From: Ignavibacteriota bacterium
GTDB lineage: Bacteria; Bacteroidota; Ignavibacteria; Palsa-1295
NCBI GenBank assembly: GCA_963787835.1
Contig: CAWBEI010000004.1
Span: forward strand, 352,001-416,000
Length of the DNA stretch: 64,000 nt
Direction of reading: 5' to 3'
This document shows positions 1 to 3,350 of this stretch, one piece after another. The stretch's first letter is position 1. Each line of letters starts with the position of its first letter. Below the pieces are notes generated by a model. It was given only the letters and a program-made list of their open reading frames with translations, ran no database searches and was not told the origin of the DNA. The position numbers were made by a program, and so were the translations under genes.

Positions 1-177
1 GATGAAGGCGAAGAGACATTCATGCAAAGCAATCCGATGGCATGATCGGCCAAAAGCACAAAATTTGTTAGTCGATTATTTATCTCATTTTTATGCAAAT
101 TTATAAAATCTTCGTCTATTTGTACTACTTCAATCCAAATCTTCAACCATTCTTCACTACATAAGGAGATTCTTTTG

Positions 178-1136
178 ATGAATCGCCTTCATATTCTACT
201 GATCACAATTGGGCTAATTTCACTTTCAACCGCGTCATTACGGGCGCAATCGCGAGAGATCGGCGCGAGAAGTCTGCAACTTGACGATGGGTCCGGCCAC
301 ATCGTGGACATCACGATTCCCGCCATGAACCCCGGTGGCCCATACTCATGGGTCATTCCGATCGACGCTAATGGTAGCTTCAATTATCTCCCGCTTACGG
401 GTGGGGAGATCACCGGCACCGTGGGAATCGGGGTTGCCCAGCAAACGAATTGGGCACTCACCATTACCGAACCGCCGGGTCACGGAGGAGGATCATGGGC
501 AGGCGGCATCGTGATAAACAATACCGATGATGTTGGAGGAAGCTTGCCAATAGTCATGATAACCCGGGCAGCATGACCTGGGGCACCGCGAACGGCAACA
601 CCGAAGGCCGCATGTTACGATTCTTCGACCAAGACCAACTCTTCGATCTCGGAATTACGTCCGCCCACAACTTCTTTCTTGGTAATGGTATTGGTAATGG
701 GATTACTGGGCAGTAGTTGACTGCTACATCAGGAGGCAATATTGGAATCCCGAATGGGGCGCTAACGGTCGCTGGAAACATTTCAACAGGTAGCCATATT
801 ACTACCTCCAGCACGATCGGATCCGTAACACACTCCGGCGCAGTAGCTTCGGCCAGCGCCTCTGGCTCAGATGTGGCAGGGGTGATCATATTCACTACTT
901 CTAACAGTGGAACGGGCTCAGTCACGGTAAACTTCGGGACGTCCTACGGCACGGCTCCTGTCGTAGTGCTCACACCGTCAAACTCCGCGGTGGGAACTTG
1001 GATAGGAAATAACTATTATGGTGCTTCTGATTTTGACTTCTATGTGACCTGCAATGCTGGGAATTTTGTTGTAAATTTTTCCAACAATGGCAATACGATG
1101 ACGAGTGGCACTTTTAATTATATCGTGGTTCATTAA
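178..1136 (+). pseudogene. Secreted tail-fibre-like protein, disrupted by a frameshift (~531-552) and an in-frame TAG (714-716)
   Basis: SD AAGGAG upstream; signal peptide MNRLHILLITIGLISLSTASLRA/Q; YLPLTGGEITG fibre motif. The frame of ORF 717-1136 is open from 531 (...SHDNPGSMTWGTANGNTEGRMLRFFD...GITGQ*LTATSGG). C-terminal VTVNFGTSYGTAPVVVLTP resembles fibre-tip beta domains. Confidence 0.7.
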
Positions 1137-1160: not shown

Positions 1161-1196
1161 ATGGGCCGGAGAATTTCTCCGGCCCATTTATTTTGT
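1161..1196. terminator. Intrinsic terminator hairpin, copy 1
   Basis: ATGGGCCGGAGAA-T-TTCTCCGGCCCAT followed by TTATTTTG; near-identical to 2876-2905. Confidence 0.8.
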
Positions 1197-1241
1197 AGTC
1201 GTATCCAGATACTCCTGAAGCAAAATCCTTTCGGCTTCTTT
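1188..1241 (-). pseudogene. Remnant of a ruvX/yqgF 3' end (KEAERILLQEYLDTTTK*)
   Basis: Minus-strand translation matches the intact ruvX C-terminus EEAARILLQEYLDTTTM* and is followed by the same hairpin. Confidence 0.85.
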
Positions 1242-1432
1242 GTGTCAAAAAAATAGATTTTGCCTCTTCACATTCTGGTTCCTTTACAAGGCTGGGTGTC
1301 TGACAATTGGAAGTTCGAGTCAAATTGAATTTCTGAGATTATTCTGAGGATTAGAAAATATCCGTATTTTTGTAATGGTAACATATCCATACACTTGGAG
1401 TAGCTTGTTCATATTTTCTTGGAGACCTATAA

Positions 1433-2848
1433 ATGAGGCGTTCTTTAGTCCCTATTATTTTACTTGGTTTAGCTTGCATTTCAACTACATCTTCCTATGC
1501 CCAGCGTGGGGTCGCCGGGAAGACATTCATTCTCGATGATGGCAGTGGTAACACGCTGACGCTCGAATATCTCAATGTACCACCGGTTCTTGGCAATTCC
1601 TTCTACAACTTTTTGCCGGGAGGCGGCGCTCCTACACCAGCAGGCTCGGTGAACGGGCAAACGCTCTGGTGGAATAACACCACGAACTTATGGGTCTCAA
1701 ATAATTTCCTGACCAACACGGGATCAGCGATAGGGATCGGCACGGCTTCACCAATCGGGCTCTTATCCAATACCACTGATAACAACTGGGGTTCCGATGC
1801 CAGAGGGATCAATCCAGCAGCCTTCACATGGGTGACCAATACGGGTGGTCACGGTTACGCAGCAAGCGTTACCAACGAAGGCTCGGGAGCGGGAGGATTC
1901 GATGGTCTCCTTGTGAGGGTATGGGATAATCATGCAGGCACCAACGCGTTGGACGTATCCCAAGGCGCTGTTTCACCCAGCACAACGCCAACATCTCTTT
2001 TAACTGTCTATGGTAACGGCGATGTGAACATCGATCCGACCATTGTCGCAGCAACATCCATCGGCAATAGCACAGCCGCAACCAATGTGAATATTACCAG
2101 CGGGAATAAGTGGAGTATTACGAATGCTGGGGCACTCACGACCACTGGTGCGGCTAATATTGCAACCACAGCCGGTCTTACAAATTATTTTGGGAATGGC
2201 GGGGGCACGACTACAAATAATATTGGGAATAATGGCACTAATGCCACTCAGACAACGAACAATATCGGTGGTACAGGGCCAGGGAGTGCAAACATGGTGA
2301 ATGGCATTGGATTTAACGATGGCTCCGGATCGGTCGTGAACCAGTTCGGAGTCGCCTTCTCCACCGGTTCTATACAGAATCAGATCGGTACAAACCAGGG
2401 CACTGGAACAGTCACTAACTATTGGGGGACCTCTAACCACACTGGCACGATCAACAACAGCTTCGGAACTTCCAGCTCCGGCCCAATTAGTAATACCTTT
2501 GGATCGAGCACCGCTGGGTCGAGCAATACCTATAGTGGCGTTTCATCCTTCACTGGGAATGTGACTACCAATGGGACGCTAAGTGCTGCTGGTGCATTTG
2601 GTTTGCATTTCCGGATAGATAATACAGGAAATACAACGGTGAATGGAATTGCCGGGGATGGATTTCTACAGATTACTGGGGGTGCTACAACGGGGTGGGG
2701 TTTGCCGCCAAGTACTACTCCCGGACAAATTTTTATAGTGAATAATCAAACGGGTTCCACTATTGGAGGTGCGCTTACTATCGCGAACGGTAATAGCGCA
2801 ATGTTCATCTACACTGGTTCTGGTTGGCAGCATATCGTTCTTCAATAA
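1433..2848 (+). CDS. Secreted G/T/N-rich beta-repeat fibre or adhesin-like protein
   Basis: SD GGAG; signal peptide ...SSYA/Q; N-terminal LDDGSG motif shared with the gene at 178; GIGTASP motif; NxxG repeats; C-terminal LP..TPGQIFIVNN...MFIYTGSGW module. Confidence 0.8.
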   Translation: MRRSLVPIILLGLACISTTSSYAQRGVAGKTFILDDGSGNTLTLEYLNVPPVLGNSFYNFLPGGGAPTPAGSVNGQTLWWNNTTNLWVSNNFLTNTGSAIGIGTASPIGLLSNTTDNNWGSDARGINPAAFTWVTNTGGHGYAASVTNEGSGAGGFDGLLVRVWDNHAGTNALDVSQGAVSPSTTPTSLLTVYGNGDVNIDPTIVAATSIGNSTAATNVNITSGNKWSITNAGALTTTGAANIATTAGLTNYFGNGGGTTTNNIGNNGTNATQTTNNIGGTGPGSANMVNGIGFNDGSGSVVNQFGVAFSTGSIQNQIGTNQGTGTVTNYWGTSNHTGTINNSFGTSSSGPISNTFGSSTAGSSNTYSGVSSFTGNVTTNGTLSAAGAFGLHFRIDNTGNTTVNGIAGDGFLQITGGATTGWGLPPSTTPGQIFIVNNQTGSTIGGALTIANGNSAMFIYTGSGWQHIVLQ

Positions 2849-2875
2849 ATTCCTCTTCTCCGTAGATGTTTTTCA

Positions 2876-2905
2876 ATGGGCCGGAAATTTTCTCCGGCCC
2901 ATTTT
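2876..2905. terminator. Terminator hairpin between convergent genes, copy 2
   Basis: ATGGGCCGGA-AATTTTC-TCCGGCCCAT followed by a T run. Confidence 0.8.
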
Positions 2906-3350
2906 ACATTGTTGTTGTATCGAGATACTCCTGCAATAAGATCCTCGCTGCCTCTTCATCGCGGAGGGATTTTTTCTCGCGCTTGTGTTTTGGCAATTCA
3001 CGGGAGCGAATGTTCGTTTCCGCGATGAGTGAAGTGAGGCGTTCGTCGCGGGTTTTGAGCACAACGCCGAGGGGTTCAAGGGATTTTGTGAGCTTATCGC
3101 GAAAGCGCAAAACTTCAGTGGTCATTGCACTTTCTGTATTCGAAAGGGTGCGGGGAATTCCGAGAATTACCAATCGGATATGCTCGGATTTCAAGAGGGT
3201 CAGAATTTCCGCGATCATTTTCGGCCCATTTGCAATCACTCCACGTGAGGTGGCGAGCATTTGCATTTCATCAGAAACTGCGATACCGAGGCGCTTGGTA
3301 CCGTAGTCTATGGCTAGAACGCGGCCGTTATTCTTCAAATCGTTCAACAC
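2904..3350 (-). CDS. ruvX: RuvX/YqgF family nuclease (pre-16S rRNA processing)
   Basis: LAIDYGTKRLGIAVSD, DERLTS, DEEAARILLQEYLD motifs. Confidence 0.95.
   Translation of the reverse strand: MLNDLKNNGRVLAIDYGTKRLGIAVSDEMQMLATSRGVIANGPKMIAEILTLLKSEHIRLVILGIPRTLSNTESAMTTEVLRFRDKLTKSLEPLGVVLKTRDERLTSLIAETNIRSRELPKHKREKKSLRDEEAARILLQEYLDTTTM

Follow-up and report, generated by a model that had tools for sequence, protein, structure and literature searches.

The genome of an Ignavibacteriota bacterium (lineage Palsa-1295; called G000 below) carries, between the intact 3′ end of the housekeeping gene ruvX and a second, diverged copy of that end, a gene for a secreted, phage-fibre-like protein. The locus lies at the start of the window, the 64,000-nucleotide stretch analysed here (contig CAWBEI010000004.1, positions 352,001 to 416,000). 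The arrangement recurs in the genome: 18 genes, ruvX and 17 others, have their last 37-167 nt repeated 0.45-4.3 kb downstream as a non-coding copy, hereafter a tail, with cargo that consists mostly of toxin-antitoxin (TA) genes lying between the gene and its stranded end. On balance we favour, as somewhat the likelier account, a homology-driven addition of such cassettes that is anchored in the host gene and reuses the tail.

Positions 1161-1241 repeat the terminator and the last 17 codons of ruvX, as an earlier note based on the sequence alone had proposed; 65 of the 81 nt (80%) match 2876-2956, with an E value of 1.4e-13 against the whole genome. The 3.57-Mb genome holds these two copies of the repeat only, and further ruvX tails upstream of the window, for which the note suggested looking, are absent. 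Its statement that six of 12 codons differ, all synonymously, holds for the stretch RILLQEYLDTTT but not over the 17 sense codons (1191-1241), of which six are identical, eight are synonymous and three non-synonymous (E>K, A>E, and the last, M>K). The ratio of non-synonymous to synonymous change (pN/pS) is 0.08 over 16 aligned codons. The tail was rejected as a small open reading frame (ORF), with a TGA just upstream and no start codon.

Over 39 core bases the tail has five differences to the ruvX tail of a related genome (G009), six to two metagenomic intact ends and ten to its own gene, so that the two copies in G000 are not each other's nearest relatives. The K and E changes are common to the tails of G000 (fibre cargo) and G009 (a pair with a PIN toxin) and occur in none of 20 intact ruvX ends. 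The G000 tail also appears to be a mosaic, informative sites favouring the G009 tail by 9:1 in its 5′ part and its own gene by 7:3 in its 3′ part (permutation p 0.011, 20 sites in all). An exact-codon pattern for an intact KEAER-type ruvX gave one match in genome contigs (an Ignavibacteriae metagenome-assembled genome, not counted as independent) and none in viral contigs, both being weak tests. The low ratio here, and a pooled value of 0.2 for tails in general, support the earlier suggestion that the remnant behaves as a once-working, diverged allele. Short-read contigs of runs X1 (1161-1311) and X4 (1111-1261) reproduce the tail letter for letter, which rules out an assembly artefact; the runs X1, X3 and X4 come from one study, give shallow contigs and may represent the source sample.

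The order of gains, and movement between species, can be read at purB, where genome sequences are compared (the short-read check concerns the ruvX locus). In G000, purB (ending RVGLV*) is followed by a ParE pair and then by a tail ending RVGL*; in the relative G002, purB (ending RVGL*) is followed by a DUF2283 cassette, a tail that ends RVGLV* and has G000's spacer, and then the ParE pair known from G000 with another tail after it. Because the G002 tail ends in GLV* with G000's spacer, the working purB end of G000 corresponds to the stranded end of G002. The alignments show, at this locus, a stack in which the newest cassette adjoins the gene and the older one has been pushed outward. The same polarity had been proposed for ruvX, where the geometry is alike and would imply the same order. 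The gene end, ParE pair and tail are together 557/590 (94%) identical between G000 and G002, against 85.6% for rpoB regions; identity ends at the tail's stop, and the DNA downstream does not align. The DUF2283 gene with its tail is 241/262 identical between G002 and G009 (rpoB about 81-82%), again with divergence at the stop codon, and 3′ of the purB tail in G009 lies the sequence that in G002 follows intact purB. Related DUF2283 genes (85-88%) are also found at ribBA and at another site; cargo therefore changes anchor, and new tails are made. A palindromic REP-like element was also seen after intact purB in G002 and after the purB tail in G009.

The census of stranded ends started from the ends of 2747 mechanical ORFs of at least 120 aa in G000, with paralogue arrays removed. 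Copies inside paralogous ORFs, the paralogue array at C4:301-304 kb, a site at C2:330021 where homology continues past the stop, and a weak case at C3:152308 were dropped before the count of 18; four loci flagged as chance-ORF overlap or 'mid' (s, t, g and the epimerase gene) were retained after inspection. Gene ends and tails are 77-100% identical, and the anchors include ruvX, purB, prs, holA, msrB, dnaK, der and ribBA among conserved housekeeping gene ends. Eleven loci have TA cargo (PemK, HigB, two ParE, two HicA/HicB, PIN, DUF433/DUF5615, DUF2283, RelE/HTH and TIGR02683), three have fibres with an LDD motif and four have other cargo; the cargo other than TA genes comprises a TPR/LuxR protein, DUF2158 and unnamed fibres, and no restriction or modification genes are among the cargo families of the 18 loci. 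The note's picture of adhesin cassettes gained at the ruvX end is too narrow: genome-wide the cargo is mostly TA, and in G009 ruvX itself carries the PIN pair and no fibre before its tail.

Cargo and tail are closely joined in the TA cassettes, nine co-oriented examples having a tail whose first base lies -4 to +12 nt from the stop codon that ends the cargo; in three non-TA cassettes 23-103 nt lie between cargo and tail. Across the genus 12 of 112 TA loci are tailed, compared with two of 194 control windows (Fisher p 1.7e-4), 12/112 being a lower bound since stacks with an anchor outside the 3-kb locus were scored otherwise (eight of 120 loci were omitted as too short). Outside the genus a clear 3′ tail was found at one of 22 DUF2283 loci (in G091), seven of 29 having been omitted as too short.

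The tails differ from their gene ends in the manner of alleles. For 34 gene-end/tail pairs from nine genomes of the genus pN/pS is 0.205; it is 0.207 for 27 independent anchors and 0.194 for the 18 loci of G000, each set differing from the expectation for a dead duplicate with p<1e-7. A dead duplicate beside a conserved gene would be expected to give about 0.5. Tail starts fall between -53 and -80 in 24 of the 34 pairs and recur at one anchor under different cargo (purB, -60 to -71; ribBA, -108/-110; der/engA, -58 and -60 to -65; ruvX, -53 to -66), those of prs being different (-60 vs -77). Double stacks occur at der/engA and ribBA, and the dnaK tail is identical to its gene end at 45 of 45 positions.

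At the ruvX locus, the earlier note's layout of a fibre gene between the two ruvX ends and a related, broken gene beyond agrees with the ORFs found. The features are as follows.

1..45, + strand: 3′ end of a TIGR00730/LOG-type gene (ORF -941..45, starting 941 nt ahead of the window); left border of the variable interval
178..1136, + strand: older fibre-family gene, broken; signal peptide and LDD motif, the frame shifted between 528 and 576 and interrupted by an in-frame TAG (714-716)
1161..1187, no strand: terminator-like hairpin of the stranded ruvX end; 12-pair stem with a T run, 27/29 identical to 2876-2904
1188..1241, - strand: stranded ruvX tail, KEAERILLQEYLDTTTK*, non-coding; the 5′ part resembles the G009 tail, the 3′ part its own gene
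1242..1432, + strand: AT-rich spacer at the tail/cassette junction (GC 0.37-0.40), likely the promoter region of the fibre gene
1433..2848, + strand: 471-aa secreted fibre-like protein; signal peptide, conserved LDD N-terminal domain, G/T/N-rich stalk and C-terminal domain 389-471
2876..2902, no strand: hairpin after intact ruvX, common to the converging fibre gene; palindrome read directly, absent from the terminator-scan list
2904..3350, - strand: intact ruvX/yqgF, the anchor gene, ending ...EEAARILLQEYLDTTTM*; PF03652 (E 9.5e-30) and TIGR00250
3328..5706, - strand: relA/spoT, upstream neighbour, context only; PF04607 and PF13328

The orthologue of the left-hand flanking gene in G009 (88% identical) matches TIGR00730 above cut-off; the 'LOG' label is one that we take to apply to genes of this type. 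The first 52-72 aa of the broken gene are 58-61% identical to fibres of G002, G014 and G009, and its frameshift is probably real, because contig X3 spans 354-591 without a gap; the TAG at 714-716 lies outside the contig cover. Several core genes between -12200 and -1100 ahead of the window (G000:C4), presumably nadA, a Ppx-like gene and a kinase-like gene, also seem to be split by frameshifts, which suggests indel errors in this assembly and calls for caution over 'broken' genes. The spacer at 1242-1432 bears a weak likeness to the leader of a 574-aa fibre gene of G014; no sigma-70 consensus was found on its + strand.

The 471-aa product is likely a secreted, phage-fibre-like adhesin, a prediction that rests on a modelled structure and profile matches. 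It has no match in Pfam, PHROG or NCBIfam, and 67 relatives among 50%-identity representatives; about seven more members of the family are encoded elsewhere in G000. In a structure model built from a 21-sequence alignment only residues 391-470 are confident (pLDDT 82-91), a single-sequence fold being unusable (pLDDT 38.5). The C-terminal model resembles phage tailspike and baseplate domains with Z 6.6-9.5, only moderately above background for the tool; the top three matches have Z 9.5, 8.8 and 8.1, and two of them are titled phage tailspikes. The sole PDB match of the family profile is the MAT fibre Bd2133 (E 0.008, profile 95-392, outside the N-terminal domain), and the protein scores Atlas 0.91 to the PF26696 PTL_trimer cluster. 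Other LDD-family fibre genes, encoding up to 2117 aa, were seen at G000:C1:10003-32730, C2:274742, C2:1025993, C2:1596591 and C4:4240, and in two of these, too, a stranded tail of the upstream gene lies beyond the fibre gene.

The DNA 3′ of ruvX, read in 13 of the 14 other genomes of the genus (G013 left out), is variable among relatives and has no one fixed arrangement, a comparison that the earlier note had called for. ruvX faces the TIGR00730-type gene in G000 and six of the 13 relatives, the other seven having different neighbours, and three further gene ends converge on ruvX in three short metagenome contigs. Between ruvX and the TIGR00730-type gene lie one to seven cargo genes that differ among genomes and belong mostly to one family (signal peptide and LDD motif). 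ruvX tails occur within the interval in G000, G009 and G014, with a decayed one in G006 whose score against the G009 tail was reached by none of 1000 shuffles; tails of the opposite flanking gene were also found, one in G006 and two in G002.

Several observations were made in passing in this interval. In G002 (C4:441000-459000) it holds seven fibre-family genes, two of which follow near-identical junctions consisting of a terminator, a long decayed LOG tail and the same leader peptide, and several of which end in a common C-terminal domain, preceded by a segment that varies and is acidic or hydrophobic. The gene directly upstream of ruvX is presumably HIT-like in G002, G014, G011, G007, G004 and G003, and relA in G000, G009, G010 and G008. 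The ruvX of G014 is more divergent than its rpoB would suggest; a foreign origin was dropped, the tree being unresolved. The 717- and 405-aa fibres common to G006 and G014 were set aside as evidence of transfer, these genomes being sisters by rpoB (89-90%). An impression by eye that in G014 a more decayed tail lies nearer ruvX, contradicting the newest-next-to-ruvX order, was discarded, since an old tail can come in as part of a block of several genes.

Related arrangements were noted elsewhere. Mirror cases, in which the 5′ start of a gene is copied upstream across a small PIN or DUF2283 cassette, are by eye fewer than 3′ tails (G000:C2:1765031, C3:172423, C6:36648 and C3:154329; also L289 and L286). 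In G003 (C12:160000-170000) TA cassettes lie within an array of secreted-protein paralogues, the anchor being the end of their common C-terminal domain and the tails starting at -54/-55 and -63 to -69. In G002 (C4:119667-122837) TA modules beside an apparent rRNA operon are set apart by a non-ORF repeat of 85-95 nt that occurs four times; here the anchor may be the end of a non-coding RNA; similar non-ORF repeats were seen at L198, L218 and L263/L255.

Under the cassette addition that we favour, the fibre cassette would have come in through host recombination with ruvX as the anchor and supplied that gene with a new 3′ end, and its entry would have pushed the old ruvX end, its terminator and the older fibre gene outward. 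A tailed cassette may arise at first through a rare event in which one end is joined illegitimately, by homology-facilitated illegitimate recombination or by insertion with a long duplication. The unit of gene end, cargo and tail of about 60 bp would thereafter need homology alone, with one crossover in the gene and one in the tail against the recipient's gene end; alternatively, a circle might be released by excision between gene end and tail and integrate through one crossover. Addition would proceed without shared downstream synteny and would retain resident cassettes, and the resulting tail would be a hybrid, its 5′ side from the donor and its 3′ side from the recipient's former working end. 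Use of the tail as a second homology arm is, we infer, the simplest account of the recurring boundaries, the cargo-linked and hybrid tails and the recipient-specific downstream DNA. The polarity at purB, the sharing of the DUF2283 cassette, the private changes and mosaic of the ruvX tail, the low pN/pS and the enrichment at TA loci all support cassette addition, as do the lack of a common junction motif and the few, distant recombinase matches detailed below; the repeat itself, the sharing of cassette plus tail between species, stacking at purB, allele-like divergence and recurrence at 18 loci are shown.

Several points weigh against this account. The mosaic rests on few sites, and the G014 ruvX tail is nearest its own gene (4/39 differences); a foreign origin of the LOG tail of G006, which first seemed indicated (89% vs 77%), was withdrawn when the values became 96/109 to G009 and 94/111 to its own gene. 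As many as 77 of the 112 TA loci have no spanning repeat, and the pooled pN/pS is biased low because only alignable, well-preserved tails are detected. No joint, circle or empty site was found in the shallow same-species contigs. The account predicts more non-synonymous decay in the 5′ half of tails than in the 3′ half, but the difference falls short of significance (p 0.14), and third-position identity climbs toward the 3′ end in purB and holA, not in prs. For RecA, an arm of some 60 bp with 80-95% identity is short. ComEC and DprA are encoded in G000 but do not show competence, since they are also present in 10-11 of 14 control genomes. Finally, the recurring tail starts at each anchor are equally predicted by a site-specific recombinase, though prs differs.

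That last point leads to the chief alternative, an integrase acting in trans, by which each anchor would be the attB of a phage or integrative and conjugative element (ICE) integrase, the tail a displaced host end, and the cassettes decayed or non-autonomous elements whose own 3′ end made the gene whole again. Stacking with the newest element next to the gene and near-fixed tail starts resemble the tandem islands of ICEs, integrative and mobilizable elements (IMEs) and cis-mobilizable elements (CIMEs) (PMC7563491). In Streptococcus salivarius, however, such tandems are found at few target genes and always with an ICE, IME or other integrase-bearing element (PMC7563491), whereas G000 has 18 different anchors, no common core motif was found (the best junction 4-mer across 27 anchors, CGAC, occurs 9 vs 3.6 times, p 0.004 among 136 tests; neither TCGA nor any other 4-mer is significant after these tests) and the tail moves with the cargo between species. 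Our searches of G000, in which DDE transposases were not sought, gave three matches to tyrosine recombinases and a single, split resolvase locus. None of these lies closer than 23 kb to a tailed locus, and 323 kb separate ruvX from the tyrosine or serine recombinase match nearest to it; the earlier statement that no integrase or transposase is nearby holds to that extent. No integrase-bearing element is among the ORFs read after ruvX, purB, prs and holA in relatives, which were not searched genome-wide for integrases, and the absence of a degenerate ruvX-end pattern from viral contigs, weak test as it is, points the same way. We regard an integrase in trans as unlikely.

The mechanism that the earlier note put forward, homology-facilitated illegitimate recombination, is rather improbable if it must act anew at every gain, so that the tail is each time the recipient's old end with a new 5′ join. 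Such joins, which have been proposed for type VI secretion system (T6SS) arrays (PMC5361080), would account for allele-like tails and for the polarity, and they fit tail lengths that vary across anchors (-37 to -167), the differing prs boundaries and the fresh 45/45 dnaK tail. A fresh join each time is at odds with tail boundaries that recur at a given anchor (in ribBA even at the unusual -108/-110), with tails that travel with cargo and with private changes common to the tails of two species; the process is cited, moreover, as orders of magnitude rarer than homologous recombination (PMC5361080). Least probable of all is duplication and decay, by which the tail began as an exact copy and then decayed or was refreshed by recombination with empty-site strains. 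Near-identical target repeats of 44-47 bp do flank restriction-modification (RM) inserts that lack mobile genes (PMC2853133), the fully identical (100%) dnaK tail agrees with such an origin, and refreshing could yield synonymous-rich, mosaic tails. Pure decay, in turn, predicts a pN/pS near 0.5 where 0.2 is observed; gene ends or tails of six other genomes lie closer to the ruvX tail than its own gene does, the two flanking fibres reach only 35% over about 100 aa to the nearest paralogue in their own genome, and one species' working end being another's tail finds no account. Duplication is disfavoured as the sole cause, yet it may be how a tail is first made.

How chromosomal TA systems become integrated is described as unclear, lone islets being ascribed to erosion and to recombination at both flanking core genes (2026 study, PMC13617665). 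The tails point to a route that would need one conserved gene end, add rather than replace, and work across species with differing gene order; the tail is also a countable scar by which gains can be dated and ordered. It is possible, if short of an even chance, that tailed cassettes are a class of self-propagating mobile element without an enzyme of its own, in which the gene end and the tail of roughly 60 bp are the two homology arms. If so, TA and fibre genes could insert themselves after a conserved gene of any related species regardless of the DNA that follows it, selection on cargo spread would hold the tail at the shortest usable length, and the entry into chromosomes of TA islets without mobile genes would be explained.

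Displacement of a gene end is familiar from e14 at icd. In the Bdellovibrio MAT fibres a signal peptide, a conserved N-terminal domain and variable phage-like C-terminal tips are likewise found in a multi-gene family (Caulton et al. 2024, PMC10769870); the fibres here are shorter (200-950 aa), their bearer has no known predatory lifestyle, and the likeness is one of architecture, with a weak profile match to Bd2133 that lies outside the LDD domain. CIMEs and microCIMEs accrete in tandem at the 3′ ends of rpmG, rpsI and fda and, like the cassettes, are integrase-less cargo at gene ends with the most decayed element farthest from the target gene, but they have att sites and a cognate ICE or IME integrase at few targets (PMC7563491), none of which was found here. 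RM genes can insert with long target duplication (Furuta et al. 2010, PMC2853133; Nobusato et al. 2000, cited therein); these, too, are small selfish gene pairs without mobile genes, with repeats longer than 30 bp in which a start or stop codon is often included, in mostly naturally competent hosts and with a hypothesised repeat-driven life cycle. Our loci likewise have direct repeats of more than 30 bp (37-167 nt) around inserts smaller than 20 kb (0.45-4.3 kb); other species have one copy of the gene end, with different genes after it. In the RM case the repeats differ very little (43-47 of 46-47 bp identical) and were ascribed to double-strand breaks that RM enzymes make (PMC2853133), whereas those here are 77-100% identical with a bias toward synonymous change, no restriction nuclease is encoded in the cargo, and both stacking and transfer between species can be seen.

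Closest in logic are the rhs loci, for which excision and re-insertion by homologous recombination between core fragments has been proposed in terms that match a second homology arm (Jackson et al. 2009, PMC2935791), and T6SS effector-immunity modules, for which sequential, homology-facilitated displacement has been proposed (Kirchberger et al. 2017, PMC5361080). In both, the incoming module adjoins a conserved anchor and shunts the incumbent end downstream, with no integrase at the locus; there the variable tip of a polymorphic toxin is exchanged and tip diversity is the function, while here the anchors are housekeeping genes, the new end is nearly synonymous, the cargo is unrelated and one genome holds 18 loci. 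In the literature covered, which excluded most subscription papers, we found no description of TA or fibre cassettes that leave stranded ends of housekeeping genes. The general logic has already been published for rhs and RM loci, to which the present case adds the housekeeping anchors, the genome-wide frequency and the correspondence between one species' working gene end and another's stranded tail.

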